A program made the position numbers and the translations under genes. From a virus (Duplodnaviria > Heunggongvirae > Uroviricota > Caudoviricetes), in the IMG/VR virus record IMGVR_UViG_3300029743_000281: a stretch of DNA of 64,000 bases. One strand, given 5' to 3'. Shown piece by piece: positions 41,057 through 57,016 of the stretch; position 1 is the first letter of the stretch, and each line of letters begins with the position of its first letter. The notes beneath the pieces are model-generated. The model made no database searches. It saw only the letters and a program-made list of their open reading frames with translations, and had not been told where the DNA came from.

Positions 41057-41529
41057 CCGCCACCTCCCAGCAGGTTTTCCATCTCATCAGCAGCATCCGC
41101 AGGGCTGCAATCCGAGGCAATGATCCGGCTTCGGGAGGATGGGGTCAGACCGAACTGCTCGGCAAAGCGGTTCATGATTTTCAGATAGGTCTGTGCAATG
41201 GAGACCTGCGGCACCTGCTGCCAATAGCCGGAGGGCGTTTTGACGATGGTGCCGTGCTGGGTGATGAATTCTTCTGCTTCTTTCCATCGTGCGTATGCCT
41301 GACAATAGCCGGCGAAGGCAGCCATGTCCACTTCGGTCAGGATGCCGATGGCTTCCATCTGCTTGGCAAGACGCCGCCATTCTTTTTTTGCTTCCGGCTC
41401 CAGCCATTTCGGACACGCCGGTGCTTTCTTTGTGGGCTTCGGTTCGCTGGTATTCAGCGGATGCTTGCCCGGATTGCCTTCCAGTTCCTTCATGGCGGTC
41501 GGCTTCGGTTTTCTGCCTCTGGTAGCCAT
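41053..41529 (-). CDS. Terminase small subunit (P27 family)
   Basis: 'MATRGRKPKPTAMKELEGNPGKHPLN' typical P27-family N-terminus. Confidence 0.8.
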   Translation of the reverse strand: MATRGRKPKPTAMKELEGNPGKHPLNTSEPKPTKKAPACPKWLEPEAKKEWRRLAKQMEAIGILTEVDMAAFAGYCQAYARWKEAEEFITQHGTIVKTPSGYWQQVPQVSIAQTYLKIMNRFAEQFGLTPSSRSRIIASDCSPADAADEMENLLGGGG

Positions 41530-41554
41530 TGGCTATCCCTCCCTTCTGTAAAAA

Positions 41555-41605
41555 TGGGCAAAAGAAAAAGGACCTCCGAAGAAGTCCTTTGTATATCAAA
41601 CACGG
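41555..41605 (-). terminator. Intrinsic terminator separating the early small genes from the packaging operon
   Basis: Minus strand AGGACTTCTTCGGAGGTCC then TTTTTCTTTTGCCCATTTTT. Confidence 0.5.
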
Positions 41606-41650
41606 CGGATACGAGACACAGCCCCCTGCGGGGCGTGTGTCCTTTATTGG

Positions 41651-42028
41651 TTATGCGTTGGGGTTGGCTTCTTTCCAAGCCTCGTACTCATCGACCAGCT
41701 CTGCCTCCTCGATGACCTGCCAGACCGCGCAGAATCGGATGCGCTGGCGTTCTATGTCCTCGGCCGTCCAGCTCTCCGGCTTGTGGCTCATGTCGTGGTA
41801 GGCATCCATCTCGGCTCTCGTCCGCTGGAAAAGGATGTCCTTGAGCTGCAGGGTTTCGGCGTTGTTCCGCAGGGTGTACCGCTTGTCCTCGGCTGCCCGG
41901 CAAAGTTTGCCAAGGTCATCGCAGTTGATGCTCATGTCCTGCTTGAACATGAGCTCAATGCCGGTCAGCTCTCGCTCGGTGGCAGCCGCCTGAATGCTGG
42001 CAAGGTAGGTTTTGGCTTTCTTCATCAT
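41651..42028 (-). CDS. Hypothetical protein
   Basis: RBS GGAGGATACAGACC then ATG ATG. Confidence 0.5.
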   Translation of the reverse strand: MMKKAKTYLASIQAAATERELTGIELMFKQDMSINCDDLGKLCRAAEDKRYTLRNNAETLQLKDILFQRTRAEMDAYHDMSHKPESWTAEDIERQRIRFCAVWQVIEEAELVDEYEAWKEANPNA

Positions 42029-42034
42029 GGTCTG

Positions 42035-42231
42035 TATCCTCCGTATGCTTTGTTTTCCGTGGGGCTTCTCCCCTTCGGTGTGACTGTATATTACCGTCAC
42101 TGGGGAAGTATATCAAGCGGCTATGATACACGATCATTCGCCCACAGTCTTGTCGGATATGTGTATATCCTGCGCACGGAAGATCTGCCGCAACGAGCAA
42201 AAGCCCCCCGCAGGGAGCCCCCGCCCATATC
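42035..42231 (-). repeat. Repeated promoter-leader module, copy 1
   Basis: Coding strand TTGATA - 17 bp - TAATAT, conserved upstream GGGCGAATGATCGTGTATCATAGCCGC, leader hairpin GGGG..CCCC, RBS. Confidence 0.7.
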
Positions 42232-42516
42232 TCAGTGTGCGTTCCGGATGCACCATTCGATGGCGTGTCCGGCATCCGAGAAGACCTCATCCGAAATCTT
42301 CAGCAGTTCCAGTCGGCACTCGATCGATGAAAGCCCTTCCTTGGGGTCCTCAGCGAATCCGTAAACCGCAGCCTCCACGCCGCCCTTCCAGTTCGTTTTG
42401 GCAACCAGAACCCGGTCGCCAAACTGCAGGATGCTGTCGTTGCAGGGACTGAGCAGGTCGTAGTAGCTCTCAATGCTGATGCTGTGTTCCGGGAAGTTGT
42501 TCAGATGCTTCTTCAT
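42232..42516 (-). CDS. Hypothetical protein
   Basis: 94-aa ORF, RBS present. Confidence 0.5.
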   Translation of the reverse strand: MKKHLNNFPEHSISIESYYDLLSPCNDSILQFGDRVLVAKTNWKGGVEAAVYGFAEDPKEGLSSIECRLELLKISDEVFSDAGHAIEWCIRNAH

Positions 42517-42649
42517 GGTGAAATCCTCCGTGTTTTTTCATTCCGTAGGGTCTTCCCCTTTCGGTATGCACATATTACCGTCATGTGGGGAGGATAGCAA
42601 GCGGCTATGCTGCACGATCATCCGCCCGGAATACCGGGCAGAATGTACA
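42517..42649 (-). repeat. Repeated promoter-leader module, copy 2
   Basis: TTGCTA-17-TAATAT; same conserved core. Confidence 0.7.
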
Positions 42650-42868
42650 TCACTCTCCGTCCTCGGCATCCTGTTCAATGAATTCCCGGATTACTTCATA
42701 AAAGAGCTGGGGGTCGTATTCCAGCGGCTCACGACCTTGGGAAAAATCAATTTCAATCTGGTCCTTGACCATCTCCTTGGCAGCTTCCAGCGTGAAGCCA
42801 GCCTTATCCTCGTCATTCATATTGTTGTAGATGTCCACGATAAGGTCCATGACTCTTTCGTCGTTCAT
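42650..42868 (-). CDS. Hypothetical acidic protein
   Basis: RBS GGAGGAATGAGT then ATG (MNDERV). Confidence 0.5.
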   Translation of the reverse strand: MNDERVMDLIVDIYNNMNDEDKAGFTLEAAKEMVKDQIEIDFSQGREPLEYDPQLFYEVIREFIEQDAEDGE

Positions 42869-42987
42869 ACTCATTCCTCCGTTGCCCCACCACCTCGCCA
42901 CACAGCCCCTGTGTGGGGCTTGTGCGGTTTGGTTGGGGGAGTTTGTTGGCTTGCATCTGCGCCCCCTTTGTGGGGGCTGTGTCGGGC

Positions 42988-43182
42988 TTACTTCTCCGCC
43001 TTGCCCAGAAGGTAGGCTTCCTCCATGGCTTTCTGGATGCCCCAGACGGGAACCTCGATGAAATCCTCGCTGTCGCAGCCGCGCGCTTCAAGGTCGCCTC
43101 GGTTTTCCACCTCCACCATCAGGCGCTTTGCGATGTCCAGCAGGGCTTTCTGCTGCTTCCTGGTCAGGGTCTGCTTTTTCAT
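42988..43182 (-). CDS. Hypothetical protein
   Basis: 64-aa ORF directly downstream of repeat copy 3. Confidence 0.45.
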   Translation of the reverse strand: MKKQTLTRKQQKALLDIAKRLMVEVENRGDLEARGCDSEDFIEVPVWGIQKAMEEAYLLGKAEK

Positions 43183-43350
43183 GTCTATGTACCTCGCTTT
43201 CGTTTTTGTGACTGTATATTACCGTCACGTCCCGCAGATAGCAAGGCCGCAGATTACACGATCATTCACGCCAGGATCGGTGTATATTTGAGAGCCCTAG
43301 CACAGGAAAAGGGGCCGCCCTTTCAGGCAAGCCCCCCCGCAGTTTTCTGC
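43183..43350 (-). repeat. Repeated promoter-leader module, copy 3
   Basis: Same conserved core (ttaccgtcac ... gatagcaaggc ... acacgatcattc). Confidence 0.7.
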
Positions 43351-43800
43351 TCAGTAGTCTTCTTCCTCATCGTAGTCGTCTTCGCAGTCGTCGTAGTCCT
43401 CTTCCTCATCGCAGCTGTCGTCCCAGTCTTCCGCCATATCGCGGTAATCCCACATATCCTTGGTGGGCTGGCTGCGAAGGTCGGGGTTCTGCTTGATGTA
43501 GTCGGCAACCGCACCCTCAAGGGTATCCAGAACCTTTTCGTAGGCATCCTCGCTGAAGATCTCCCAAAGGGCTACGGTCAGGCTGCTGATTTCTGCGTTG
43601 CCCTTGGCGATCAGGAACCGGGCCGCGGGGTTGCAGGTTTCTTTGCCGTAGCCCTGGTTGACCATGTCGCCGTCGTTGAAGAATCGGTACCCGATCCGTG
43701 CGGTGGCTCTGACCAGTTCTCCGGCGAGGCTATCCGCCTTGCCGCTCGTGGGAACCAGTTCCTCGAAAAGCTTATTGATGCGGTTTTCATTCTTCGTCAT
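43351..43800 (-). CDS. Hypothetical protein with an extremely acidic C-terminal tail
   Basis: RBS GGAGGATACAAAA then ATG; C-terminus DSCDEEEDYDDCEDDYDEEEDY. Confidence 0.5.
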   Translation of the reverse strand: MTKNENRINKLFEELVPTSGKADSLAGELVRATARIGYRFFNDGDMVNQGYGKETCNPAARFLIAKGNAEISSLTVALWEIFSEDAYEKVLDTLEGAVADYIKQNPDLRSQPTKDMWDYRDMAEDWDDSCDEEEDYDDCEDDYDEEEDY

Positions 43801-43970
43801 TTTTGTATCCTCCAGCGTGTTTTTTGTGTTTTCCGTGGGGTTTTCCCTTTCGGTATGCACATATTACCGTCACTTTCGCACACTATCAAGCGGCTATGAT
43901 ACACGATCATTCGCCCCTAGATTTGTGTACATTCGGGCGGTATGACATTGGATGGACACGAGCAAAGGGC
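43801..43970 (-). repeat. Repeated promoter-leader module, copy 4
   Basis: Same conserved core. Confidence 0.7.
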
Positions 43971-44004
43971 CGGTTTCCCAGCCCCTTGCCCCTATCCATC
44001 CGGT

Positions 44005-44265
44005 TTATTTGCGGATTTCGAGGTAGCTTATATTGCCCCAGCAATCGGTGGTCTTGAACCGCACCTTCTGTTCGGTTTCCCGGTCGAGGGCTACCTTCCT
44101 CAGAAGTTTCATCTTCTGGATGCGCCGCAGAAGGTCTGCTGCGTTCTTGGCATCTTCAATGGCGTCTTGGATCTCGACCACCGAGCAGTCGGTACCGTAC
44201 CAAAGGTTGCTGAGTGCCTCCGGAATGCCGTTGGCAGTGAAAAGTCGGATGTTCGTATAGGTCAT
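44005..44265 (-). CDS. Hypothetical protein
   Basis: RBS AAGGAGATAAACACC then ATG. Confidence 0.5.
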   Translation of the reverse strand: MTYTNIRLFTANGIPEALSNLWYGTDCSVVEIQDAIEDAKNAADLLRRIQKMKLLRKVALDRETEQKVRFKTTDCWGNISYLEIRK

Positions 44266-44371
44266 GGTGTTTATCTCCCTTCGTTTTTGTGACTGTATAT
44301 TACCGTCACTCAGGGCTGATAGCAAGCGGCTAATGTACACGATCATCTGGCTCTTCACTCCGGAAAATGTG
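44266..44371 (-). repeat. Repeated promoter-leader module, copy 5 (shorter)
   Basis: Same conserved core. Confidence 0.65.
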
Positions 44372-44926
44372 TCACTTTATGCCGCCGTGGTATTCCTCGA
44401 TATACTGCCTTCCGTCCGGTTCGGTGACCACCGCAGGGTAGCGCACACGGCTGCCGTGCCGGGTCAGGAGCTCGGCGGCAAGGTCTGCCAGTTCTCCGAG
44501 AATCTCCATGTTCCACTCGAGGCGGTCATCCTCCGCCATGACCTTGCAGAATTCATACGCAGCGTTGTAGATCTCATCGTTGCGGGCACTCTGGGCATCC
44601 GAAAGTTCCAGTTCCTCCTCCGTCTCCGGCACCGTAGGCTTCGGGCACTCCGCCCAGCGCCCTTCGTAGGTCTCGCCGGCCTCACAGCCGTCGGCGTCGT
44701 ATTCGTTGACCCGAACCCACCGGTTCGACTGGAACACTCGCTCGGTGATGCCATTCTTCCGGATGCTGAGCATCACCTTCTCTCCATTTTCATTGACACC
44801 CCACAGGGCGTCCGGGTAATCCCCGAACTCCTGAATCATCTGACGGCGAGTGGCAAGGTCGCCAAAATTGGCGGCCAATACATTGAGCCGGATCGTGTCC
44901 AGCTTCTTGTCCAGTTCCATTTTCAT
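44372..44926 (-). CDS. Hypothetical protein
   Basis: 185-aa ORF with RBS. Confidence 0.5.
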   Translation of the reverse strand: MKMELDKKLDTIRLNVLAANFGDLATRRQMIQEFGDYPDALWGVNENGEKVMLSIRKNGITERVFQSNRWVRVNEYDADGCEAGETYEGRWAECPKPTVPETEEELELSDAQSARNDEIYNAAYEFCKVMAEDDRLEWNMEILGELADLAAELLTRHGSRVRYPAVVTEPDGRQYIEEYHGGIK

Positions 44927-44943
44927 ATTCGTTCTCCCCTTTC

Positions 44944-45150
44944 TCAAAAATCCAAGGTCTCCAGAACCTCGTCCGTGCCGGTCTCCCAGTCGTGGCGGGT
45001 CAAGCGGATGCGGCTGTACAGCTCGGTGCTGTCCGGCTCATCGAAAAGCCGGAAGCATTCCCTGGCAAACCCCTCGTCGGTGTACTGCTGGGTCTCGTCG
45101 GGCTGGCCGTCCAGCCGGGTGAAGGTGATCTCGTAGGTGTAGCGTTCCAT
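44944..45150 (-). CDS. Hypothetical small protein
   Basis: RBS GGAAAGGAAGGAAAAAC then ATG. Confidence 0.45.
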   Translation of the reverse strand: MERYTYEITFTRLDGQPDETQQYTDEGFARECFRLFDEPDSTELYSRIRLTRHDWETGTDEVLETLDF

Positions 45151-45355
45151 GTTTTTCCTTCCTTTCCGTTTCGGTATGTGCATATTACCGTCGTTTCGGC
45201 ATAATAGCAAGGCCATAAAACGTCATATTATCGACGATCATCAGCCCATATCTTTGGTGGATCTATGTCGATAAATGGCCTTGATAAATATGTGTTTTAG
45301 AGCGAATATACAGACACCGAAAGGAAAACACACACAGAAAACGGAGGCAAACACC
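45151..45355. repeat. Repeated promoter module, copy 6, arranged as a divergent pair
   Basis: The minus-strand copy serves 44944..45150. A plus-strand TTGATA-17-GAATAT plus a similar leader serves 45356..45604. Confidence 0.6.
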
Positions 45356-45604
45356 ATGAAAAAGACCATCAGCGAGATCGAAAGCATCATCGAGGACCAC
45401 ATTGCAGAGCTTGAAGAAGAATACGAGCTGGACATTTTCGACCGCAACGACATCCGGGAAGAAGAATACCGCAAGGGCGGTTGGAAGCACGACCCCTTCC
45501 CCGAAGAGCTGGAGGAGGAAGAGGACGAGGAAGAAGAATGGCATTACATGAGCCTTGAGCAGCAGCTCTACGAAGTCGGCATGAGCATGCGGGATTTCCT
45601 TTAA
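45356..45604 (+). CDS. Small acidic protein (plus strand)
   Basis: RBS GGAGGCAAACACC then ATG; EEEEDEEEE stretch; terminator hairpin CCCCAGC-AAG-GCTGGGG at ~45623-45640. Confidence 0.5.
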   Translation: MKKTISEIESIIEDHIAELEEEYELDIFDRNDIREEEYRKGGWKHDPFPEELEEEEDEEEEWHYMSLEQQLYEVGMSMRDFL

Positions 45605-45714
45605 GAGAATCCGCCAAGGAACCCCCAGCAAGGCTGGGGCTGTTCCCCGTTGTCCCCGTTTTCCGTTGACCATATACACAGTTCTGCCGCCTAAAGATCG
45701 TGGAAGATCCTGCT

Positions 45715-45840
45715 CTTTCCCGGCTTGCTATTCTTGCAAACCAGAGCTAATATACAGTAAACTGGGAAAGGATTCTCGATGATCCGAGGCCCCCCACCAG
45801 CCCACAAGCCAGCCCCTCCTGCCTAGGCAGAAGGGGCCGT
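45715..45840 (+). ncRNA. Candidate short plus-strand transcript (sRNA or micro-ORF MIRGPPPAHKPAPPA)
   Basis: TTGCTA-17-TAATAT at 45715-45750. Terminator: near-palindrome CCCCTCCTGCCTAGGCAGAAGGGG then CCGTTTTCTTTATT. Confidence 0.3.
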
Positions 45841-45845
45841 TTTCT

Positions 45846-46217
45846 TTATTCGGGCTGTGTGCCGTCGCTTGTTTGGATGGCCGCAAGTCCCGATGCGGTG
45901 CGAACGAAAAGCTCCGGATTCCAGAACCGTTTTCTGAACCTGTCCATGAGTTCCTGCGGCAAGTCCGTGAAGTCTTCCTTGCCCAACCCGCAGAGGAAGA
46001 AGCGGCCGCGGATCGGCTGTCTCAGTTCCCGGATATACCGGCTGAACAGCTTGTCCGTAAACAGTCCGTTGTCATCCGTGACCAGGGCGACCGGTTCCGG
46101 CCACGGGTAGGTTGCCGTGATGCAGTCGCAGTCCAGCACCTTATAGTACTCTTCCAGCGTGGGCTGGATATCGATCTCCTTCGGATGTTCCATCGGCTCG
46201 ATCAAAAGCACCTTCAT
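45846..46217 (-). CDS. Hypothetical protein
   Basis: Start MKVLLIEPMEHPKE overlaps the upstream stop. Confidence 0.5.
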   Translation of the reverse strand: MKVLLIEPMEHPKEIDIQPTLEEYYKVLDCDCITATYPWPEPVALVTDDNGLFTDKLFSRYIRELRQPIRGRFFLCGLGKEDFTDLPQELMDRFRKRFWNPELFVRTASGLAAIQTSDGTQPE

Positions 46218-46672
46218 TCGACCCACCCCGCTTTCACGATTGCCCAGTCGGTCAGCGATGTCTTTTCCCCAAGAAAGTCTTCCATCGCTTCGACCGTACC
46301 GCAAGTGTTGCACACCATGATCTCTGCGTAGCGGCTGATGGCTTGCTGTTGGTGGTCGTAACAGTCCGGCTCAGCGCCGCACCGTGGGCAACGTGGGCCC
46401 GTCTGTCGCGTCTTACCGAGGTGGTCGAGCGATTCCTTTACCTCGGCCTCGGACGCCACACGGTGGCAACTGTCCGCGCCGTAAGCAACGTTCAGGCTGC
46501 CGCCTGTATCCCAGGAAACCATCACATTGCCGGCATCGTCCACACCACGGCAGGTTCCCTGCGTGCCCAAGGCCGGTGCCTGGGCATCTTCCATTCGGTC
46601 CAGCACCACACGGCAGCCGACCGGGAACTGTGTCCGCAGAGTTTCTACGGTCTTTCTATCCGGAAATCTCAT
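46214..46672 (-). CDS. Hypothetical protein with C-terminal Cys4 zinc ribbon
   Basis: RBS AAGGAGGTGCAGGG then ATG; 'CPRCG...CNTCG'. Confidence 0.5.
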   Translation of the reverse strand: MRFPDRKTVETLRTQFPVGCRVVLDRMEDAQAPALGTQGTCRGVDDAGNVMVSWDTGGSLNVAYGADSCHRVASEAEVKESLDHLGKTRQTGPRCPRCGAEPDCYDHQQQAISRYAEIMVCNTCGTVEAMEDFLGEKTSLTDWAIVKAGWVE

Positions 46673-47151
46673 CCCTGCACCTCCTTGATCATCTTCTCCG
46701 CGAGTTTCTTGTTGTTGGTACACTTCTTCAGTGCGCCCTCCAAGATGTGCATCGGGAAATGAAATGCTTTATAGCCATCGTGAAGGACTCGATAGTAGTA
46801 CAGACTCGGCATTTTCTGCCCATAGTCGTGTTCCATGATGTAGACCATGGCGATGACGGTCATGGGCTCCGCATCCTTGCTCACCACCTCGACCGTCATA
46901 TTTTCCTTGCGGTAGTAGTGCGGGAAGCCCTCATAGATGTCGAGGTTCTTCTCATCGCCAGCGGAGATTTCCCACACCAGGACCGGTGTGTTCTTTCCCT
47001 TGTTCGGCAGGATGGTCGCGCAGCCGTGGAAGGCCAGCTCCCAGTCTTCCAGAACAGCCTGGCCCACAATGCGGGCATCCGGGCACCGCTGTGCCATCTG
47101 CTCCACCGACAAGTTGCTGCCGTATGCGATGTAATACTTCTTTTCGTTCAT
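46669..47151 (-). CDS. Gamma-glutamyl cyclotransferase-like (GGCT/AIG2 family) protein 1
   Basis: 'YYIAYGSNLSVEQM' signature N-terminus; 160 aa. Confidence 0.75.
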   Translation of the reverse strand: MNEKKYYIAYGSNLSVEQMAQRCPDARIVGQAVLEDWELAFHGCATILPNKGKNTPVLVWEISAGDEKNLDIYEGFPHYYRKENMTVEVVSKDAEPMTVIAMVYIMEHDYGQKMPSLYYYRVLHDGYKAFHFPMHILEGALKKCTNNKKLAEKMIKEVQG

Positions 47152-47283
47152 AGTCGCTTGCTTCTTTCGTTTCCGCTGTTGTCTGGCGGTATGCTATATA
47201 TGCCTCTGTTTTGCCCGAATAGCAAGGCCAATGTGCATCATATCCTGCACAATGATTTCCTCACAGGATCGGCAAAATTGTAC
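47152..47283 (-). repeat. Repeated promoter-leader module, copy 7
   Basis: Same conserved core. Confidence 0.65.
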
Positions 47284-47820
47284 TCAGTCGATTTCTTTGA
47301 GGAACTCCACCGCTGCCGCCTTTCCGATGCTGGAAGACAGCCCGCTGTGCAATGTATCTGTCGGGAATCCCCACTCCGTATACCCGTCTGCCAACAAGTC
47401 GAAGTACTCATGGCTGGGGCAGCCGAGCTGCCTTTCTTCGTGCAAGATGTATGCCATACAGGTTTTCAGCTTCTTCATCCGATGCCCATCCAGATTCCAG
47501 ACGGGAAGCTGGAACTGCTTCTTGTAATAGTACCGAGGGCAGCCCTCATACCGATCCAGCAGCAGTTCATCAAACTCGGAAAGCAGCCATACCACAGCTG
47601 GGACGCTTTCATTGGCATCCTGCTCGATGGTGGCGTAGCACCCGGTCTTACTTTTCTTGAACAGGAGTCGGTATCCGTAGATCTCGGTAACACCGACCGG
47701 CACCGCATAGGGGCATCTGTGCCCCATCCGTTCCATGTCAAGGTTGCTGCCGTAGGCAAGATAGTACCGAGACGGCTTTCTGCTGATCCCGCCCTTGTCG
47801 AACCGGAAGTGATCAATCAC
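47284..47820 (-). CDS. Gamma-glutamyl cyclotransferase-like (GGCT/AIG2 family) protein 2 (GTG start)
   Basis: 'YYLAYGSNLDMERM'. Proposed GTG start overlaps the upstream stop (GGTGATTGA). The longer ATG ORF would overlap gene 47813..48043. Confidence 0.65.
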   Translation of the reverse strand: MIDHFRFDKGGISRKPSRYYLAYGSNLDMERMGHRCPYAVPVGVTEIYGYRLLFKKSKTGCYATIEQDANESVPAVVWLLSEFDELLLDRYEGCPRYYYKKQFQLPVWNLDGHRMKKLKTCMAYILHEERQLGCPSHEYFDLLADGYTEWGFPTDTLHSGLSSSIGKAAAVEFLKEID

Positions 47821-48043
47821 CGACCTCACCGCCTTCCGCTGCGGAAAAGTCCACGCCGTCAAAGTCCTCAGCTTCCAGAACGATCTGTCCGTTGTGCCAC
47901 CAGTCGCTGACCGCCTGGACGGCCTCATCCATCGTGGGTTCCTTGATCTCAGATTCGTTGACCTCGACCACCCGTTTGAGGGTCTCGGTGATGACCACCC
48001 GGAACGTTCTGCCGGGTGCGGTTTCTCTGGTTTCATTTTTCAT
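47813..48043 (-). CDS. Small acidic protein (76 aa)
   Basis: RBS AGAAGGAGGGCGATACGCC then ATG. Confidence 0.55.
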   Translation of the reverse strand: MKNETRETAPGRTFRVVITETLKRVVEVNESEIKEPTMDEAVQAVSDWWHNGQIVLEAEDFDGVDFSAAEGGEVGD

Positions 48044-48113
48044 GGCGTATCGCCCTCCTTCTACCGCCTAAAGGGCGGTTGCCCGCCCGATAGGTGCCCG
48101 TGCAAGTCGGCGC

Positions 48114-49049
48114 TTATGCGTTGCGCCAGCTTGCGTTGCCCTCCATATTCCGCAGAAGGATCTCCCGTGCTGTTTTGAACTCGTCCCCGATGAAGCCCAG
48201 CCGAAGCATCCAGCACCGCATTGCGTATTTCTCATTGTCAGTCTGCTGGGGCTTGGGGCTTGCGGTCTTCACCATCTTGGCAAGCTGGCTCATTGCGAGG
48301 CAAAGCTGGATGTAGGCTTTCAGCTCACCGGCGTGAAGTCCGTTCTGCTTGCCGTCGCTGGGGTCGGCAAACTGGAAAAGCCGGAATTCAATCGTGCCCT
48401 TGGTGAAGGTGGCGTGGAGGTTCAGCATATGGTATCGGCTTTCATTGTAATGTGCCGTTCTGCCGTAGTTTGCGTGGTTGCCGGCGTACCAGATGTCGGC
48501 AAGCTCGGTCATGGTCGTCGGCTTTCTCTTGTTCAGCTGGTCAAGGAATCGGGGGTCGACCACTCGGCAGTACTGTCCGGTTCTGCCTGCATCGATGCGA
48601 ATCGCTCTGCCGATCTGTTCTTCGTGGGCGGCCATGATGTTGACCAGATTCCGCAGAGTCTTGGGGGTGTGGCTGCCCTTGCCGATGTGGATGTGAACGC
48701 CGCATCCCCGGCTGGGGCTGGACTTTGCGCCAGCCTTGCGGAGCAGTCGGATGATCGCCTGCAAGGTCTCGATGTCCTCGTAGGTAAGGATGGGGGTCAC
48801 CATCTCGCACTTTTCAGCTTCCGGTCCGTGGATGCTGATGTCTCGCTGGAATTTCCAAACCCTGCCCTGCTGGTCCTTGCAAGCCCAGCTCATGTACCCG
48901 TACTCGCCGGCTGCGTACCATGCGGTCGTTCCGAAGAACTCGGCAACCTTTCTGGCTGCTTTCTCGCGGGTGATGTTGTTCATCTCAACCTCGACCCCGA
49001 TGGTCTGCATCTTCATGGCTTCGATCTGCTCTCTGGTCTTATCGTTCAT
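48114..49049 (-). CDS. Amidoligase (Amidoligase_2-like, glutamine-synthetase-like fold)
   Basis: 'QTIGVEVEMNNITR...GCGVHIHIG'; RBS AAAAGGAGATAAACACC then ATG. Confidence 0.7.
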   Translation of the reverse strand: MNDKTREQIEAMKMQTIGVEVEMNNITREKAARKVAEFFGTTAWYAAGEYGYMSWACKDQQGRVWKFQRDISIHGPEAEKCEMVTPILTYEDIETLQAIIRLLRKAGAKSSPSRGCGVHIHIGKGSHTPKTLRNLVNIMAAHEEQIGRAIRIDAGRTGQYCRVVDPRFLDQLNKRKPTTMTELADIWYAGNHANYGRTAHYNESRYHMLNLHATFTKGTIEFRLFQFADPSDGKQNGLHAGELKAYIQLCLAMSQLAKMVKTASPKPQQTDNEKYAMRCWMLRLGFIGDEFKTAREILLRNMEGNASWRNA

Positions 49050-49240
49050 GGTGTTTATCTCCTTTTGTCTTGTTCTGTTCCCCTTGCGGTATGTGCATAT
49101 TACCGTCATGTGGGGAGGATAGCAAGGCCATAAAGGGTCAAATAATCACCGATCATTCAGGGCAAAGATCGTGTACATTATGGCGAGAAATACACTTGAT
49201 ACTGTACATTTTCAGAGTTAATATCGGTACAATGGAAGAA
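49050..49240 (-). repeat. Repeated promoter-leader module, copy 8
   Basis: Same conserved core. Confidence 0.7.
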
Positions 49241-49364
49241 GCTCTCTCTTATCCGGCGGCCCCCATAAGGGGTCAGGAGCTTACGCTCCCGCCTCCTGCG
49301 CCTGGGGTGCGCCGTCAGCCCCACAGTCGGGCTGTGTGGGGGCTTCCGCTGCCGCTTCGGCCGT

Positions 49365-50411
49365 TTAAACGCCGCCGTGTGTCGCCTGTTTTGCGACTTT
49401 CAGCGCATCTCGTTTTGCCTTTTCCTTGACCCGGAACTTTTCGGCATCTTCCTTGGTGCGGAATGCCGCATGACCGGTAAGGTTCTGCATCAGGAGCTTG
49501 CGGATGGTCTTGTGTTCATCCCCGTTCAGACCCAGTCGGATCAGCCAGATGCGAAGTGCGTACTTCTCATTGGCATCGTTGACGGTCTTTGCCTGAATCC
49601 GCTTTTGGGTAACTGCCATCCGGTTCATAGCGGAACAAAGTTCTGTGTATGCACTCACCTTCTCCTGCGTCAGCGGACCGGCAAAGGTCAGGCTGATTTT
49701 TTCTGCCGTGATAGAGATTCCAGTCATGCCGGTTGTGCCGGCACCCAGGCGGTACTCTTCCAGCTCATCCAGCATCTCCTCCACCGTGCGGGTAGATGCC
49801 TGTTCCAAGGCATCCAGCAGGCTGTTCGATACCGAGAAGTTCGTGCCCATTGCTTTGTTCAACAAAGGACCGCGGCTGTACATCAGGTTCAGGAAGTTGC
49901 GGATGCTCTGGGCTGTATGCCCCGCCATCGGTAGGCTGATGGTCAGTTCGTCCACATCCTGCAAGGTCGGCTGTTCGGTCGGAACAGGCGCCTCATCCGC
50001 ATCGGTGTCGTTCACGGTGTCCATCGGCTCATCCTCGTCCACCGGTTCCTGAACTTCCGGGGATTCCTCGGCAGTTGCGCCCGACTCCTCAGTGGGCTGA
50101 GTATCCTCTGTGCTGTCCACGGTCTCATCTGACTCTTCACACTCCGATTCCGTGGTCTCCCCGCAGGCAGCTTCGGTCTCCGGGGTCTCCACGCCTTCTT
50201 CACGGATGATGCCCTCGTCCAGCAGCGTCCGGATGATCTCCGGCGCAGCGTTATCTTCGATCACAAGCGTCCCCTCCTTTTCTACGGTGTAGCTGCCGAC
50301 AATGTAAGCGCACCGCGGCATGAAAGTGTACCGGGAATGAAGCCCGGTCAACTCCATCAGGCGGCTTACCAGCACCTTGCGATCCTCGATGTTCAATGCG
50401 TACTTTTTCAT
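49365..50411 (-). CDS. Amidoligase-like paralog with a long acidic insert
   Basis: C-terminal 80 aa align with amidoligase 48114..49049 (NEKYALRIWLIRLGLNGDEHKTIRKLL vs NEKYAMRCWMLRLGFIGDEFKTAREIL). Confidence 0.55.
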   Translation of the reverse strand: MKKYALNIEDRKVLVSRLMELTGLHSRYTFMPRCAYIVGSYTVEKEGTLVIEDNAAPEIIRTLLDEGIIREEGVETPETEAACGETTESECEESDETVDSTEDTQPTEESGATAEESPEVQEPVDEDEPMDTVNDTDADEAPVPTEQPTLQDVDELTISLPMAGHTAQSIRNFLNLMYSRGPLLNKAMGTNFSVSNSLLDALEQASTRTVEEMLDELEEYRLGAGTTGMTGISITAEKISLTFAGPLTQEKVSAYTELCSAMNRMAVTQKRIQAKTVNDANEKYALRIWLIRLGLNGDEHKTIRKLLMQNLTGHAAFRTKEDAEKFRVKEKAKRDALKVAKQATHGGV

Positions 50412-50619
50412 AGCTTTGTGCTCCTTTGCCTTTGTTTTTTCGGTAGCACATATATCGCTCTAATTCGATAATATAGCAAGGCCATTTAGCGACATTTCTC
50501 ATATTCGACCCATTACACAAACCGTGCCAAACACGACTGTGCAGGATCGTCCGATATGTATGCCCACTGTATCACGGGGGCATTCTAACCTCGCAATACG
50601 GTGGGCCGTTTTATAGGAT
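50412..50619 (-). repeat. Repeated promoter-leader module, copy 9
   Basis: TTGCTA-17-GATATA; same conserved core. Confidence 0.65.
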
Positions 50620-51429
50620 TCAGCCAGCTCCGCCCTCCAGCACAGCGATGCGACGCTCAAACTCTGCCGCCTGGTTTTCCAGTGCTCCGAGTCTCTCGGC
50701 ATCCGTCTTGGGCTTTTCCTCGGTTTCTCCGTCAAGGATCAGGTAGCGTTCCATGACATATCCGGGAATGGTGTCGTAGGTTACAGCACACCAGCCGTCT
50801 CCCTGCCCGGTCACATCCAGCCGGGTACCATTGGGAATCCATGCCAGCCGGTCTGCGGTCTTGGACGGAGCTTGACGCAGACTCAATCGCCCGCCCGTGA
50901 CGGTCGCCTTGTTTCGGGTCTCCTGCATCTTGACTTCGCTCATGTCTGTTTCCTCCTGAGTCGTTCCATAGTCGATGCCCTTCAGCCGGCCACCGTATTT
51001 CCACTTACCGAGCGTTGCATCCCGGTGGATGCTGTTGCCGTTCACCGTAGTGGAACAGTGGGTGATTTCCAGCGGACGCACCTTGGTGACGATGCCTACA
51101 TGATAGTAGTCCAGCAGATCACCGCCATCCGCCTTGTAGCGGTCCGGCAGATTGTAGCTGCTGTCTCCCGGTTTTCGGGCTTTGTAGACGATCTCACCCA
51201 CAAACAGATCAGCAGATTTGATCTCTGCAAAGTCGGTCATCTGTTTCCGGGCTGCGTAGTTACTGCCGTGGATGCCATTCCAGCCTCCACCAGCCCTGCG
51301 GACCGCACCGATGATGAGACCGATGCAGTCACAGGTGCCATCCGTGCCGCTGCCGCCGATGCGATAGTCCGGTTTCGTAGCACAGATGGCTTCGAGCTGC
51401 TCCAGAAAAGCAGCTAGTTTGATGCTCAC
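50620..51429 (-). CDS. NlpC/P60-like cysteine peptidase with C-terminal SH3b domain
   Basis: 'GTCDCIGLIIGA' resembles the NlpC/P60 Cys motif DCSGLV. 'DYYHVGIVTKV' resembles the His motif. C-terminal SH3b-like region. Confidence 0.55.
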   Translation of the reverse strand: MSIKLAAFLEQLEAICATKPDYRIGGSGTDGTCDCIGLIIGAVRRAGGGWNGIHGSNYAARKQMTDFAEIKSADLFVGEIVYKARKPGDSSYNLPDRYKADGGDLLDYYHVGIVTKVRPLEITHCSTTVNGNSIHRDATLGKWKYGGRLKGIDYGTTQEETDMSEVKMQETRNKATVTGGRLSLRQAPSKTADRLAWIPNGTRLDVTGQGDGWCAVTYDTIPGYVMERYLILDGETEEKPKTDAERLGALENQAAEFERRIAVLEGGAG

Positions 51430-53678
51430 TCCGATTCACTTCCGTTCACGGGCAATCCGGCCGCCCATGCGATGCCGGACAGTACAAAAAAGACACACGG
51501 CAGCGCGACACCATTGCCCCAGAGCTTATACTCTGCGGCATCCGAATACGGATCAGCCAGCCACTTACGGATCTGCTTTTCCGTTTTCGGTTTCTTGGCA
51601 TGGGTCACAAGTCTGCGGTGTGTTTCAAACGCATCCTGCCAGAAGGCAAGTTCCTCCTCGGTGGGGTTCTCTGTAGCGAGGTCATGGCACCACCAGTCCG
51701 GAAAACCTTGCAGCCGTGCGCACTCGGTCGGGGTCAGACGGCGGACAGTATAGGATACGGGAGCCGGCTGTGCCTCCGGGTTGTCGATGACCAGCCGGTC
51801 ATTGAAAGCATCCTGCCCGTTGAAGCCGCTGGGATGCGCCCCAGTCGCCACCGTTCCCGACACGCCATCGTTCAGGTGCGGCACCGGTGCTATGGTAGTG
51901 GGGTCCTTAAAGTCCCGGGCCATAAGGGTGGGAGATACATTCTCCTCGACCCTCATGAAGGAGCCGGTGGTCATAGCGTAGACATCTTCCGGTGCGCAGA
52001 CTGCGTGACGGTCAGTGGCATCCAGCGTAAAGCAGACATCTTCGTTGATGCCGTCGCCTTGCGGACCATTCTCGTCTTTGCGACCGATCATGTTGCCCTG
52101 CAGTACGAAGGTCTGCATCTGATCGCTCCGGGTCGCCATGAGCGCACCGGACTTTCCGTGCAGGTCGATCAGCTCATTGCGCTGATTTACATGGAATGCC
52201 GTCACGTCATCCGGCTGCGCCACAAAGGTCTGCTGTTTCATTCCCGGCTGTGCAGACAGCGAACCCGCCGTCTCGCCCAGATCCCGGACTTCATCCCGCT
52301 GGTTCTGGGTAAAGGCAACCGTCTCGACCACACAGATGCCGCCCTGGTTACAGGTCGGGTCACCGCCGCTGCGATCCAGCGTCCGGGAAGTTTCCGCTTC
52401 ATAGAATCCGCTGTGGGGGTTATCCGACATCATGGAATGGCTGGCTTTCGAGCAGACACCGTAGCACTTCGGGACGAATACAGTTTGGTCATTGTTGCAG
52501 CCGAGGGTGGCGGACTTATCCTCCTGCCAGATGGCGCCCTTGCCGCCTCCTTCACACCCAGAGCGAATCTTCAGCGTGACGGCCGGCAAGTTTTCCACCC
52601 CTTCCCTACTGTTTTCCACGCCATCCAGAACCAGCGGAACATTGCCGCCGCCCGTACCGCATCTACTGGTCAGAGTCTGTACCTTGCCATCCTTGGAAAT
52701 TTTCACTCGACTGTCAGTCGGATGATTTTCCAAAGCGATGGCGGCAGGCACGACTCCGGCCCGGAGTGTAGGAGAACGTTCTTCCTCATATCCGATGCTC
52801 CTCGCATTGGCGGAGTGTTCGGTGCAAAAACCTGCGGATTCCAAAACGCAAGGCGGGTGATGTGCCTCTGCACGGAGAATGGAGGTCACCTCTTCGGTCA
52901 CATCCATCCTCTCCCCACCCTGATCGTTCAGGCATATTCTTCCGCAGCAGCCTGCCGTTCCAGTGCCGCCTTCAGCACCGGAGGCAGCTCTTTGCCACGC
53001 ACGGAAGCTCTCCGCAGAATACCCAGACACGCCTTCGGACTCAAATAATACTTTTGGAGCACCGTGGTCTGCAAAATCTGCGACAAGGTAGATGCGTTTT
53101 CTCCTTTGGGGTACGCCCCACCATTGAGCGTCAAGAACTCGATATGCGACGCTCCATCCGTCTCCCAGATAGTAATCTGCATCGGGCCAGCCTTTTTTGT
53201 CAGGCGCAGGCACCTCGGTGGACGGTTCCTTAACACCGATGACGGCTTCGAGGACTGCCTTGAAGTCCTGTCCTTTGTTTGAGGAGAAGGCCCCCGGCAC
53301 ATTCTCCCACACGATAAATCTTGGTTTTGCTCCATTGGTCTTACACCTCATTTCCTTCACGATTCGAATCGCTTCATAGAACAGGCTGGACCGTGAACCA
53401 TCCAGACCGTCTCTTTTACCGGCAATGGACATATCCTGACAAGGACTGCCAAAGGTGATGATATCCACCGGCGGCAAGTCTGCGCCGTTGATGGCGGACA
53501 CATCTCCGTAGTGCTTCACCTCCGGCAGACGCTTGGTCGTGACCCGGATGGCGAAGGGCTCCACTTCGCTGCTCCACAGCGGCGTGATACAGCCTGTCAG
53601 TAAACCGCCCAAAGGAAAACCCCCGGAGCCATCAAAGAGGCTGCCGAGGGTCAGTTGGATATTCGATTCGGTGCTCAT
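51426..53678 (-). CDS. DNA (cytosine-5)-methyltransferase, large (750 aa)
   Basis: Motif I 'FDGSGGF', motif IV 'GSPCQDMSIAG', motif VI 'ENVPG'. Confidence 0.85.
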   Translation of the reverse strand: MSTESNIQLTLGSLFDGSGGFPLGGLLTGCITPLWSSEVEPFAIRVTTKRLPEVKHYGDVSAINGADLPPVDIITFGSPCQDMSIAGKRDGLDGSRSSLFYEAIRIVKEMRCKTNGAKPRFIVWENVPGAFSSNKGQDFKAVLEAVIGVKEPSTEVPAPDKKGWPDADYYLGDGWSVAYRVLDAQWWGVPQRRKRIYLVADFADHGAPKVLFESEGVSGYSAESFRAWQRAASGAEGGTGTAGCCGRICLNDQGGERMDVTEEVTSILRAEAHHPPCVLESAGFCTEHSANARSIGYEEERSPTLRAGVVPAAIALENHPTDSRVKISKDGKVQTLTSRCGTGGGNVPLVLDGVENSREGVENLPAVTLKIRSGCEGGGKGAIWQEDKSATLGCNNDQTVFVPKCYGVCSKASHSMMSDNPHSGFYEAETSRTLDRSGGDPTCNQGGICVVETVAFTQNQRDEVRDLGETAGSLSAQPGMKQQTFVAQPDDVTAFHVNQRNELIDLHGKSGALMATRSDQMQTFVLQGNMIGRKDENGPQGDGINEDVCFTLDATDRHAVCAPEDVYAMTTGSFMRVEENVSPTLMARDFKDPTTIAPVPHLNDGVSGTVATGAHPSGFNGQDAFNDRLVIDNPEAQPAPVSYTVRRLTPTECARLQGFPDWWCHDLATENPTEEELAFWQDAFETHRRLVTHAKKPKTEKQIRKWLADPYSDAAEYKLWGNGVALPCVFFVLSGIAWAAGLPVNGSESE

Positions 53679-57013: not shown

Positions 57014-57016
57014 GGG

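Follow-up and report, generated by a model that had tools for sequence, protein, structure and literature searches.

Arrangements similar in kind to the one considered here are known from other phages and plasmids, and its closest analogues are the establishment promoters repeated on plasmid p576 and the promoter-early stem-loop (PeSL) cassettes found in T4-type phages. PeSL cassettes have been described by Arbiol et al. (2010, PMC2839356) and Comeau et al. (2014, PMC4122927). As at our locus, they are repeated motifs of ~100 bp that join a host sigma-70-type promoter with stem-loop terminators, directly precede small genes with no known function where the genome is plastic, and coincide with differences among close relatives; late genes downstream are protected from read-through, as they would be here. 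However, the repeats studied here belong to a temperate tailed phage of Gram-positive Clostridia and not to a virulent T4-type myovirus, no sequence homology connects the two, a GC-containing box in 10-bp phasing replaces the AT-rich upstream element, the stem-loop is not constant in the motif, and the backbone of units is lineage-conserved rather than hyperplastic. The EGeRS2 establishment promoters of p576 (pLS20 family), with their repressor Reg576 (Val-Calvo et al., 2021, PMC8708921), also come from a Firmicute. They too consist of partly identical sequences, each with a sigma-A promoter, upstream of several clustered small operons, many rather than one, of variable accessory and candidate anti-defence genes. 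Unlike p576, a conjugative plasmid, our element is a phage; its regulon yielded no repressor gene, of the ribbon-helix-helix kind or any other; and transient expression, known from the p576 system, would be hypothetical here. Morons, reportedly described in lambdoid and other temperate phages by Juhala et al. and Hendrix et al. in 2000, resemble our units as autonomous promoter-gene-terminator insertions among phage genes. Morons are sporadic, have unrelated promoters, and often deviate in base composition, whereas the twelve units here share one promoter family and the phage's own composition. Among actinobacteriophages, the stoperators of Cluster A are 13-bp repressor sites and the start-associated sequences (SAS) of Cluster K are translation-associated. 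Both are, like our repeats, short conserved motifs in many copies at gene starts that imply one shared factor, but neither is a complete promoter cassette limited to one island. Finally, the Frpo-driven anti-defence islands of plasmid leading regions (Samuel et al., 2024, PMC11541004) also contain small accessory genes near methyltransferases and a dedicated promoter type repeated across the island; Frpo promoters, however, are single-stranded DNA hairpins, and those described below are ordinary duplex promoters.

The window, the whole 64-kb stretch of DNA under analysis, comes from a tailed phage that is temperate, a prophage of gut Clostridia, and is close to Ca. Heliusvirales, its nearest annotated relatives. 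Between its DNA methyltransferases and small terminase gene lies a ~9-kb island of accessory genes tiled by twelve units. Hundreds of IMG/VR contigs share this array, as do prophages of Faecalibacterium, Lawsonibacter, Blautia, Wujia, Acetatifactor, and rumen Clostridia, where the gene order methylase - island - TerS/TerL is constant; a description of a repeated promoter array was not found in the literature on this very common phage group. An earlier note had recognized nine copies on the minus strand and a tenth promoter facing the other way. All nine were confirmed in place, the coordinates listed there being those of the base adjoining each start codon (the start codons 3' of these copies are at 42028, 42516, 43182, 43800, 44265, 45150, 47151, 49049, and 50411), and the tenth was borne out as a plus-strand copy at 45725-45753, but the total of ten was too low. 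Aligning the nine copies gave an nhmmer profile that recovers twelve (E 5e-19 to 4e-9), nine on the minus and three on the plus strand, all within 42.0-50.5 kb, with zero matches at E<1e-3 elsewhere in the window. The two plus-strand copies absent from the note have their -35 elements at 45281 and 49196. The motif GACGGTAATAT occurs exactly seven times, always within 42088-49107, and nine times with at most one mismatch, against 0.45 expected. Every copy points at a gene or a terminator: ten are followed by a ribosome-binding site and start codon, and the other two, both on the plus strand, run straight into a hairpin and T-run.

It is proposed, with a probability of about 0.7 for the reading as a whole, that the repeats are sigma-A (sigma-70-type) promoter cassettes which tile the accessory island, are read by host RNA polymerase, and double as homology patches. 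The core of each unit consists of CTTG(A/C)TA as the -35, a 17-bp spacer whose last bases are GACGG or AGAG(C/T/G), and a -10 that is usually TAATAT. Among 352 distinct copies from 80 IMG/VR relatives, the C-TTG of the -35, G -14, and A -11 show no exception (352/352), the predicted +1 is A in 98%, and spacer positions 6-17 vary freely, with almost no information. Fixed TTG, G -14, and A -11, together with A at +1 and a free spacer, form the signature of a sigma-A promoter, and this conservation supports the description of the repeats as promoter-leader modules in the earlier note. Relatives whose TerL is merely 60-75% identical still retain the -35, GACGG, the -10, and ACCGAAAGG. A Shine-Dalgarno-like sequence and an ORF follow within 120 nt in 687 of the 816 module instances in the window and the relatives' loci (median distance from predicted start site to start codon, 41 nt); the remaining instances are mostly two conserved non-coding units. 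Some observations count against the sigma-A reading: the hexamers match the consensus at just 8-9 of 12 positions, and copies 7 and 9 are missing the T at -7. The pattern TTG(A/C)TA-17-TAATAT ascribed to all nine minus-strand copies holds in seven, copies 7 and 9 having CATATA and GATATA. A generic promoter scan flags 3 of the 12 copies and finds five promoter-like sites in the region, no excess over the 5.5 expected from shuffles.

The units are described here from the highest coordinate downwards, on the minus strand unless stated otherwise. Module c9 (50412-50521; -35 TTGCTA 50479-50474, -10 GATATA 50456-50451, predicted start ~50444), a member of the AGAGC sub-class with a weaker -10, would drive g1 (49365-50411, 348 aa), in which most relatives have another sequence in place of the acidic N-terminal part and the C-terminal ~100 aa resemble an amidoligase C-terminus. 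On the plus strand, module p49196 (49151-49300; -35 TTGATA 49196-49201, -10 TAATAT 49219-49224, predicted start ~49231) is divergent from c8 and has no conserved ORF; its predicted transcript enters the hairpin region facing the g1 3' end. Module c8 (49050-49179; -35 TTGCTA 49125-49120, -10 TAATAT 49102-49097, predicted start ~49090) is the probable promoter of the operon g2-g3-g4 (47284-49049), encoding Amidoligase_2 (g2, 48114-49049), DpnD/PcfM (g3, 47813-48043), and GGACT/AIG2-like (g4, 47284-47820) proteins. Next, c7 (47152-47270; -35 TTGCTA 47225-47220, -10 CATATA 47202-47197, predicted start ~47190) would drive the operon g5-g6-g7 (45846-47151), with GGACT (g5, 46669-47151), DUF4314 (g6, 46214-46672), and DUF3846 (g7, 45846-46217) products. 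The plus-strand module c11 (45680-45850; -35 TTGCTA 45725-45730, -10 TAATAT 45748-45753, predicted start ~45760) has no ORF; 3' of it lie a hairpin (~45771-45793) and a terminator hairpin (45812-45837) with TTTTCTTTATT, and in relatives the T-run is on the first hairpin itself, giving a predicted RNA of ~40 nt. The third plus-strand module, c10 (45236-45355; -35 TTGATA 45281-45286, -10 GAATAT 45304-45309, predicted start ~45316), is divergent from c6 and probably drives gP (plus strand, 45356-45604), the sole plus-strand protein gene of the island, with a very acidic product of 82 aa, followed by the hairpin CCCCAGCAAGGCTGGGG at ~45624-45640. Module c6 (45151-45245; -35 TTGCTA 45210-45205, -10 TAATAT 45187-45182, predicted start ~45175) would serve g8 and g9 (44372-45150; g8, 68 aa, 44944-45150; g9, 184 aa, 44372-44926).

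Module c5 (44266-44350; box GATCGTGTA 44344-44336, -35 TTGCTA 44325-44320, -10 TAATAT 44302-44297, predicted start ~44290) is predicted to drive g10 (44005-44265; 86 aa, no family match), after which a terminator-like hairpin with TTTGCTCG is located at ~43960-43986. In c4 (43801-43935), a TGTACAC distal box (~43932-43920), box GATCGTGTA (43908-43900), -35 TTGATA (43889-43884), -10 TAATAT (43866-43861), a predicted start at ~43854, and a 5' leader hairpin precede g11 (43351-43800), its putative target gene, which encodes 149 aa with an extremely acidic D/E/Y-rich tail and is followed by a GC hairpin with TTTT (~43307-43339). Module c3 (43183-43270; box GATCGTGTA 43263-43255, -35 TTGCTA 43244-43239, -10 TAATAT 43221-43216, predicted start ~43209) would drive g12 and g13 (42650-43182; g12, DUF6900, 42988-43182; g13, 72 aa, 42650-42868). 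Module c2 (42517-42631; -35 TTGCTA 42600-42595, -10 TAATAT 42577-42572, predicted start ~42565), with a 5' leader hairpin, probably drives g14 (42232-42516), which has an Nmad4 domain and a terminator with its stem at 42204-42217 and GCTTTTGCTC. Module c1 (42029-42143; box GATCGTGTA 42135-42127, -35 TTGATA 42116-42111, -10 TAATAT 42093-42088, predicted start ~42081), also with a 5' leader hairpin, would drive the last gene of the island, g15 (41651-42028; 125 aa, no family match). A double hairpin (41567-41640) lies between the island and the small terminase gene (41529-41053), and its second hairpin (41590-41567 with TTTTTCTTTTG) is the strongest intrinsic-terminator match of the region. Units are separated by terminators, of which the one preceding TerS is strong, and several cassettes are completed by the terminator hairpin that belongs to the gene before them.

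The predicted transcripts begin with A at the start site and the purine-rich, Shine-Dalgarno-like ACCGAAAGG, which folds as a 5'-terminal hairpin in a subset of copies, the true ribosome-binding site being further 3'. Leaders fold at -5 kcal/mol or better in 42% of cases, against 16% of shuffles. In the non-coding units, the pairing of the hairpin is kept by compensatory changes (pair 19-26 is GC in 10, AU in 9, and UA in 1). Several sequence details had been attributed to the modules in general and hold for part of them: only copies 1, 2, and 4 have the GGGG-N-CCCC leader hairpin; the conserved 27-mer GGGCGAATGATCGTGTATCATAGCCGC is exact in copies 1 and 4 and partial in 2, 3, and 5, copies 6-9 having ..TATGGCC immediately 5' of the -35 in its place; and an ATAGC..GCTAT inverted repeat covers the -35 only where this is TTGCTA with an AGCCGC prefix, in a register that is inconsistent among copies.

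The upstream box raises the question of a phage-encoded regulator. The box (A/G)ATGATCGTGTA is found in about half of the copies; in 191 copies ATCGTGTA begins 18 bp before the -35 and in 67 copies 28 bp before it, two registers that differ by one helical turn. It is possible, though doubtful, that the array is a repressor-gated burst regulon, in which strong promoters fire on entry and a phage DNA-binding protein at the boxes then silences all twelve, also in the lysogen, on the pattern of the EGeRS2 promoters and Reg576 of p576, for which there is a precedent (PMC8708921), or of Aca-controlled anti-CRISPR promoters. Consistent with this, the GATCGTGTA and TGTACATT boxes are confined to the island (5/5 each, against 0.22 and 1.13 expected), the box is phased in 10-bp steps from the -35, the inverted distal half RTACAC accompanies 191 of 551 copies (24 in shuffles), mostly ~53 bp upstream of the -35, TGTACATT lies within the spacer of the p49196-type copy, a typical repressor position, and the -10 of copies 1, 3, and 5 lies within the palindrome GTGACnGTAnTnTACnGTCAC. 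However, no island protein, most of them being acidic, has a recognisable DNA-binding domain, the sole HTH protein found in the window is encoded far off (4218-4598) with no adjoining box, the -10 palindrome shows no compensatory changes in relatives, and the box is missing from about half of the copies; no regulator was identified. The same box, at ~-53 or -63 from the start site, has the placement and one-turn phasing usual for class I activators, and with -10 elements matching at just 3-4 of 6 positions and an island immediately upstream of the late packaging genes, one could consider activator-dependent middle or late promoters, where a phage protein on the box recruits RNA polymerase and the island is switched on after the early genes. 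This is quite improbable, given the good, invariant -35 at optimal 17-bp spacing, which activator-dependent promoters usually lack, the many copies without a box, and the strong terminator between the island and the late operon.

Three further explanations concern the origin or form of the units. Under the first, the units are morons that are transcribed from the repressed prophage and help the lysogen, e.g., by excluding other phages. At least five units show the promoter-gene-terminator layout that defines morons, relatives differ in the presence of some units, and the double terminator before TerS would stop spill-over into late genes if prophage units were transcribed. Morons are nevertheless an unlikely account, as the GC content of the island is no different from that of the remaining phage, a backbone of ~10 units is conserved across the lineage and not sporadic, and the gene families are of the conjugative-element and DNA-modification type, not those classically linked to lysogenic conversion. 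A mobile repeat (MITE) or a recombinase site of the integron attC kind, with incidental promoter likeness, is suggested by multiple dispersed copies of 100-200 bp at gene boundaries and by the several serine recombinases of the phage. The earlier note had seen no terminal inverted repeats or target-site duplications by eye, and on the sequence evidence this alternative is rejected here: single copies have no terminal inverted repeats, the only long inverted repeats in the array being the divergent c6/c10 pair; all copies face a start codon or terminator; conservation peaks at promoter positions and not at the ends; zero copies occur beyond the island; and the copies, rather than being recent insertions, are old positional orthologues that match the corresponding slot in relatives at 75-85% identity, whereas paralogues within the window share 32-81%. 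[quoted passage not shown] As ssDNA, the nine minus-strand modules give small, mutually different hairpins (z -0.45 to -3.1), no fold pairs the -35 with the -10 in a duplex, and a tailed phage with terminase and portal injects double-stranded DNA; with no conserved long hairpin holding both hexamers, this identity was rejected as well.

The modules had also been suggested to mark recombination-prone cassette boundaries, and a comparison of 38 relatives bears this out in part. Break points of the alignment lie within 50 bp of a module in 427 of 614 cases, the modules making up 22% of the region, and the module sub-variants, or halves, paired with a given gene family differ across relatives, with one documented chimera (L026). 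Cassette presence and absence was likewise found, g9 being missing in about half of the relatives. However, a 3.1-kb deletion in L011 starts within the amidoligase gene, and the g9+c5 insertion/deletion has no module at its left edge. With module sub-variants reassorted among genes, gene shuffling is moderately supported. Under selection alone, break points would be expected in intergenic DNA anyway.

In the sigma-A cassette reading, ten copies would each drive one small gene or an operon of two to three genes, and two plus-strand copies would fire into a terminator hairpin shared with the end of a convergent operon. Host RNA polymerase alone would read the promoters, with start sites, strength, and timing as predicted from their sequence, and since it would need no phage factor, the island could be transcribed gene by gene once the DNA enters the cell. 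The double terminator before the terminase gene would shield the late operon from this transcription. The island gene families are common to conjugative elements and phage DNA-modification systems, and family names and position suggest a putative anti-defence role. As homology patches resembling the PeSL cassettes of T4-type phages in this respect, the conserved modules may allow accessory genes and promoter halves to be swapped between related phages.

One island of the window holds twelve conserved cassettes of promoter type, together with their ribosome-binding sites, genes and terminators; judged by comparison with relatives, they are under selection across a broad phage lineage. A direct-repeat search of the window recovered the repeat families, and all nine minus-strand copies that an earlier note had placed there (copies 1–9) were found at their positions, each ending at a start codon. 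The sequence GACGGTAATAT occurs exactly seven times in the window, always within 42088–49107, and with at most one mismatch it gives nine matches vs 0.45 expected. A two-hexamer pattern finds 12 sites in the window, all at 42.1–50.5 kb, and an nhmmer profile built from them recovers the same 12 (E from 5e-19 to 4e-9) and no copy at E<1e-3 in the rest of the window. Besides the nine minus-strand copies and the “tenth promoter” on the plus strand (45725–45753), which the earlier note had listed, two more plus-strand copies exist, bringing the total to 12. One (45281–45309) drives the island’s only plus-strand protein gene, gP (45356–45604); the other (49196–49224) is divergent from copy 8. Several features that had been attributed to every copy hold for some of them. 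Copies 1 and 4 alone carry the 27-mer GGGCGAATGATCGTGTATCATAGCCGC without a mismatch, and TATGGCC stands before the −35 in copies 6–9. The −10 element, given as TAATAT for all minus-strand copies, reads CATATA in copy 7 and GATATA in copy 9, and the GGGG/CCCC leader hairpin is present in copies 1, 2 and 4 and absent from the others. The inverted repeat ATAGC..GCTAT over the −35, described as operator-like, shows no compensatory change in relatives and is not called an operator here. A palindrome over the −10 of copies 1, 3 and 5 was rejected as an operator on the same ground.

Searching with the large terminase (TerL) gave 327 confirmed IMG/VR relatives, and 80 loci, 95–98% identical in TerL, were fetched. 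Most of those with enough upstream sequence carry 5–7 exact copies of GACGGTAATAT upstream of TerL. The profile gives 597 module matches across the 80 loci and the window; full-length loci have at most 12 modules each, in the same order as in the window. All 12 window copies have TTGCTA or TTGATA as −35 and a spacer of 17 bp, and 10 of the 12 have TAATAT or GAATAT as −10, copies 7 and 9 being without T at −7. Among 352 distinct copies, the C and TTG of the −35, A at −11 and G at −14 (two bases before the −10 hexamer) are invariant, T at −7 is kept in 88% and the remaining hexamer positions in 80–97%; the base 7 nt after the −10, the predicted +1, is A in 98%. Spacer positions 6–17 carry <0.6 bit in the same set, leaving twelve positions essentially free. 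In 687 of 816 instances (window and all fetched loci), the next 120 nt downstream contain a Shine–Dalgarno-like sequence and the start codon of an ORF of 35 codons or more, with a median of 41 nt from predicted start site to start codon. The other 129 include 15 at contig ends, and most of the remaining 114 belong to two conserved non-coding units. On this comparative evidence, the bases are constrained as in a sigma-70-type promoter that has a partial extended −10, and not as in a repeat that was copied recently. Only 8–9 of 12 hexamer positions agree with the E. coli consensus, and a generic promoter scan flags only 3 of the 12 copies and does not show the region to be enriched in promoter-like sites, so that the argument for promoters is built on comparative conservation and not on consensus strength. 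A phage sigma factor was considered and rejected: the window encodes none, and in both hexamers and spacing the copies conform to the housekeeping factor. Host sigma-A polymerase probably initiates ~7 nt after each −10.

A core of the same style is found at 8866–8925, before the minus-strand serine-recombinase gene that starts at 8866 (TTGCTA, 17 bp ending in CGG, CATTAT, an A start and GGAGG). Its score does not reach the profile threshold, and it has neither the box nor the leader of the island; the core is thus generic in its features, and it is the box and leader that define the island family. The search pattern also matches a conserved stretch upstream of ORFs starting MDR(V/I)IEKV.. or MPK.. 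in unrelated Clostridia loci (L089, L100, L102, L110, L131, L134 and L156). From the reading frame, this stretch looks like the 3′ end of the preceding gene, and the matches in these loci were discarded as not being the module. By eye, the ORF of L131 looks like a large serine recombinase.

The transcribed 5′ end is conserved as well, as ACCGAAAGG(G/A)A or ACA(A)AAACGAAGGGAG. This start is a purine-rich, Shine–Dalgarno-like element at the extreme 5′ end. In short-leader copies it is the actual ribosome-binding site; long-leader copies have, after it, an optional hairpin from +2 and further on a second site, GGAGG, which is the true one. Leaders fold at −5 kcal/mol or lower in 42% of cases vs 16% of shuffles, and at −8 kcal/mol or lower in 22% vs 4%. 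RNAalifold on 46 hairpin-type leaders, a set pre-selected for folding whose stems MAFFT placed out of register, gave no consensus structure; this result is flawed, and leader structure is therefore argued from the shuffle comparison only. In Firmicute mRNA, 5′-terminal stem-loops and 5′-proximal STAB-SD-type sequences protect from 5′-end-dependent nucleases, and the leaders may act as transcript stabilisers.

Upstream of the −35, the box ATCGTGTA starts at 18 bp (191 copies) or 28 bp (67 copies), two positions one helical turn apart. The inverted half RTACAC is found in 191 of 551 copies vs 24 in shuffles and is concentrated ~53 bp before the −35. In the window, GATCGTGTA and TGTACATT occur five times each, all in the island, vs 0.22 and 1.13 expected, respectively. 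A full inverted copy of the box was found by weight-matrix search in ~11% of copies, only where two modules stand back to back as divergent pairs; a strict palindromic operator is thus not general, and only the short half RTACAC is enriched. The upstream boxes look like protein-binding sites. Pfam and PHROGs detect no DNA-binding domain in the window’s island proteins or in 35 cluster representatives from relatives, and a regulator search with the same databases over the island genes and 61.8–63.9 kb gave nothing convincing. The sole helix-turn-helix protein found in the window (4218–4598) has no box nearby. Small orphan proteins of the island could bind DNA.

The modules split the island into ten gene units. 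On the minus strand, copy 9 drives g1 (49365–50411), copy 8 the amidoligase gene g2 (48114–49049) with DpnD/PcfM and GGACT genes, copy 7 genes for GGACT, DUF4314 and DUF3846 proteins, and copy 6 g8 and g9. These are followed by copy 5 with g10, copy 4 with g11, whose product has a very acidic tail, copy 3 with a DUF6900 gene and g13, copy 2 with the Nmad4 gene (g14), and copy 1 with g15 (41651–42028); on the plus strand, the copy at 45281–45309 (c10) drives gP. Sequence searches against solved structures with g9, g11 and g15 gave nothing below E = 0.1. The products of g1 and g2 have a common C-terminal segment of ~100 aa, NEKYA(L/M)R.W..RLG..., and PHROGs labels g1 “amidoligase enzyme”. Hairpins with a T-run follow g15, g14, g11, g10 and gP, and terminator-like hairpins lie upstream of copies 1, 3 and 4; copies 2, 5 and 6 have no T-run terminator upstream. 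The terminator tail TTTTGCTCG is present in 17% of copies in relatives. Between g15 and the small terminase gene (TerS) there is a double hairpin, the second part of which (41590–41567) is the region’s strongest terminator match, and no recognisable promoter was found in this gap (41530–41650), including none for the late operon. Late transcription may use antitermination or an unconventional promoter, and a cos site may lie within 41530–41650. It is fairly likely that the terminators keep the units independent of one another and act as a shield for the late operon.

The two non-coding units (45760–45850 and 49231–49300, both plus-strand) are paralogous and consist of a module promoter with a GC-rich hairpin and a T-run close behind it and no ORF. 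In most relatives ~10 nt separate the start site from the hairpin, behind which comes ATTTT, giving a predicted RNA of ~40 nt; the hairpin also faces the 3′ end of the convergent operon. In the stem alignment 83% of cells are paired, a value reached by 0 of 500 shuffles, and the stem pair 19–26 is GC in 10, AU in 9 and UA in 1. The stem is kept via compensatory changes, with the reservation that the structure itself was derived from the same sequences. The units have no Rfam match. At gathering thresholds, Rfam gave no family in the whole window, and at E<=1 in the island the sole match was a terminator hairpin weakly like ctRNA_p42d; identity with a known RNA family was rejected accordingly. 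The units are possibly insulators or small RNAs.

The window is a temperate tailed phage or prophage, and almost all its genes are on the minus strand. In transcription order, the primase/D5-type helicase gene (60965–58557) comes first, followed by those for S-adenosylmethionine synthetase and an HNH endonuclease, three DNA methyltransferases (55706–51426) and an SH3-domain protein (51429–50620), which lies between the methyltransferases and the island. After the island come TerS (41529–41053), TerL (41056–39431), portal, ClpP-type protease, HK97-type capsid, tape-measure protein (29539–23666), tail proteins and lysin, and last the serine recombinases (9027–5199). One of the three methyltransferases directly upstream of the island has a fused ParB-like domain, and this upstream region (51426–58084 and 60959–61669) also encodes the S-adenosylmethionine synthetase and a PemK/MazF-like toxin domain. 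Methyltransferase and SAM synthetase are the lineage’s commonest auxiliary genes according to the Heliusvirales paper. The nearest annotated records are “NatCom” phages from human faeces, filed under Ca. Heliusvirales. At 1–5300, GC content is lower (45–48%), and the genes are those of a large serine recombinase (1056–3017), an AAA_25 protein (3027–3998) and, on the plus strand, the XRE-type helix-turn-helix protein (4218–4598); this part may be a lysogeny module or a separate integrated element adjoining the phage. No tRNA genes were found in the window, and the genome ends (cos or pac) were not located from the contigs.

Sequence relationships among the copies indicate that the array is old and positionally stable. 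Window copies match the same-slot copies of relatives best, at 75–85% identity over 75 nt, whereas paralogues within the window are 32–81% identical over the same length. Concerted evolution among the copies was rejected because orthologous slots are the best matches. In relatives with TerL only 60–75% identical, the −35, GACGG, −10 and ACCGAAAGG start are all retained. A pattern scan of one genome per species found arrays in prophages of Faecalibacterium intestinale, Lawsonibacter asaccharolyticus, several Blautia, Wujia, Acetatifactor, Clostridium fessum, Eubacterium and rumen Clostridia, always between methylase or amidoligase genes and the terminase. Two fetched Ca. Heliusvirales regions with only short stretches similar to the window have 2–3 copies each, which fits an expansion of the array in the window’s sub-lineage. 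TerS and TerL of the window (39431–41529) have near-identical counterparts (95–100% aa) in isolates that belong to different families, where they lie on large contigs: Faecalibacterium intestinale CLA-AA-H281, Blautia faecis DFI.3.66, Blautia sp. BIOML-A1, Clostridium fessum SNUG30386 and Blautia sp. HCP28S3_G10 (loci L145, L177/L094, L137, L179 and L155). Either an unusually broad host range or carriage by another vehicle would account for this (compare PMC12934698 and PMC12247996).

Divergence is far greater in the island proteins than in the packaging genes, as in L145, where TerS is 100% identical and the island proteins 52–86%. Amino-acid identity to relatives falls sharply at the terminator before TerS (41651–50411 vs 39431–41529). 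Either the island is exchanged, or its evolution is much faster than that of the structural module. The first genes behind the modules fall into about ten common families and roughly 35 rare ones, the latter including LPD28 (mentioned in PMC5512222), DUF4313, DUF7678 and DUF7698. In most relatives the SH3 gene, g9 and the acidic N-terminal two-thirds of g1 are either absent or replaced, with the flanking modules retained. The proposal of the earlier note that the modules are cassette boundaries for gene shuffling gains from these comparisons in part. Alignments end within 50 bp of a module in 427 of 614 cases (70%), against 22% expected by length. Module halves are reassorted: the g8 family has an AGCCGC-type upstream half in 29 relatives and a TGGCC-type in 23, and the g11, g12 and g14 families are each found with both leader types. 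The L026 module before g8 is chimeric, with an upstream half like window copy 5 and colinearity with copy 6 from the −10 on. However, the 3.1-kb deletion of L011 starts inside the amidoligase gene and not at a module, and the insertion or deletion of g9 with copy 5 has no module at its left edge. Selection alone would also place surviving junctions in intergenic DNA. Mediation of gene shuffling by the modules is partly supported.

Among known systems, the PeSL cassettes of T4-type phages are functionally closest. They are repeated strong sigma-70 early promoters with stem-loop terminators, upstream of ORFans in plastic regions, and act as recombination points (PMC2839356; PMC4122927). The window likewise has, in a variable region, a repeated ~100-bp motif that contains a host-type promoter and precedes ORFans. 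The stem-loop terminator, part of the PeSL motif, is found here before copies 1, 3 and 4 and in the two non-coding units, but not before copies 2, 5 and 6. As to motif-bounded differences between close relatives, the observations here are mixed: 70% of breaks lie at modules, which make up 22% of the region, module halves are reassorted and one module is chimeric, but the L011 deletion and the left edge of the g9 insertion or deletion lie away from modules, and intergenic position is a confounder. Unlike PeSL, the upstream region of the window array has the box GATCGTGTA and no AT-rich tract, and the phage, with its HK97-type capsid, tape-measure and serine-recombinase genes, differs from those carrying PeSL. 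Second closest is EGeRS2 of plasmid p576, a set of repeated sigma-A promoters that a repressor from within the same regulon switches off (PMC8708921). Partly identical sequences upstream of clustered operons, each with a sigma-A promoter, are common to both. EGeRS2 has inside its regulon the gene of a repressor that binds all the promoters, its own included; in the island proteins Pfam and PHROGs detect no DNA-binding domain, although small orphan proteins among them could bind DNA. EGeRS2 resides on a conjugative pLS20-family plasmid, whereas the island stands in a phage context of terminase, portal, capsid, tail and lysin. By analogy, then, the array would work like PeSL and EGeRS2 without being, by descent, a member of either.

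The earlier note had named a MITE as the alternative to look for; single copies are not flanked by terminal inverted repeats, each copy faces a gene or a terminator, and the copies are positional orthologues, so the MITE was rejected. A single-strand promoter of the Frpo or ssi kind was rejected too, the DNA folds of the nine modules being weak, short, local and different between copies, with no −35/−10 duplex. The promoter–gene–terminator layout of morons is seen in five units (copy 1 with g15, copy 2 with g14, copy 4 with g11, copy 5 with g10, and c10 with gP), each with a T-run hairpin. No description of the array was found in the searchable literature, and the main Ca. Heliusvirales paper has no mention of promoters or intergenic repeats.

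In the proposed working of the array, transcripts started by host sigma-A polymerase ~7 nt past each −10 would be kept as separate units by the terminators. Expression of the island might, tentatively, be immediate on phage entry and possibly cut back later by a box-binding factor. A role of the island genes in counter-defence or establishment is suggested, with low confidence, by family names (PcfM, Nmad4, amidoligase/GGACT, LPD28), acidic proteins and the neighbouring methylases. Lambda-like phages with this gene order package from a cos just upstream of the small terminase gene. If the same held here, the island would be packaged last and injected first; that it is the first DNA injected is speculative. 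Taken together, these elements could make the island a phage counterpart of a plasmid leading region, injected first and governed by one factor as a counter-defence regulon, a joint reading that we consider unlikely as a whole (roughly one chance in five). Under this leading-region reading, the genes would point to the entering end, and a promoter per gene would allow transcription after only a few hundred more bp had entered. One putative factor reading phased GATCGTGTAC boxes would govern all twelve promoters, and the promoter-into-terminator units would yield abundant ~40-nt RNAs, serving as insulators or RNA decoys. If the leading-region reading were true, the motif would define a counter-defence regulon across a very widespread human gut phage group.

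Ca. Heliusvirales has been described as a widespread, ancient intestinal phage lineage (PMC11283538). For this group, a searchable promoter motif would help to delimit the accessory island and list its gene repertoire in hundreds of uncultured genomes, and the shared promoter offers a way to find candidate counter-defence genes, much as the establishment regulon of p576 was delimited. The promoters and leaders come in natural variants that are presumably functional in Lachnospiraceae as well as Oscillospiraceae, hosts that are hard to engineer. Whether gene reassortment in temperate phages is driven by repeated regulatory cassettes, an idea put forward for T4-type phages, could be examined on the array as a concrete case. 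The array is real and conserved, and its mechanism is ordinary; its value is practical rather than conceptual, in that the motif defines an accessory regulon in a very common group of gut phages.
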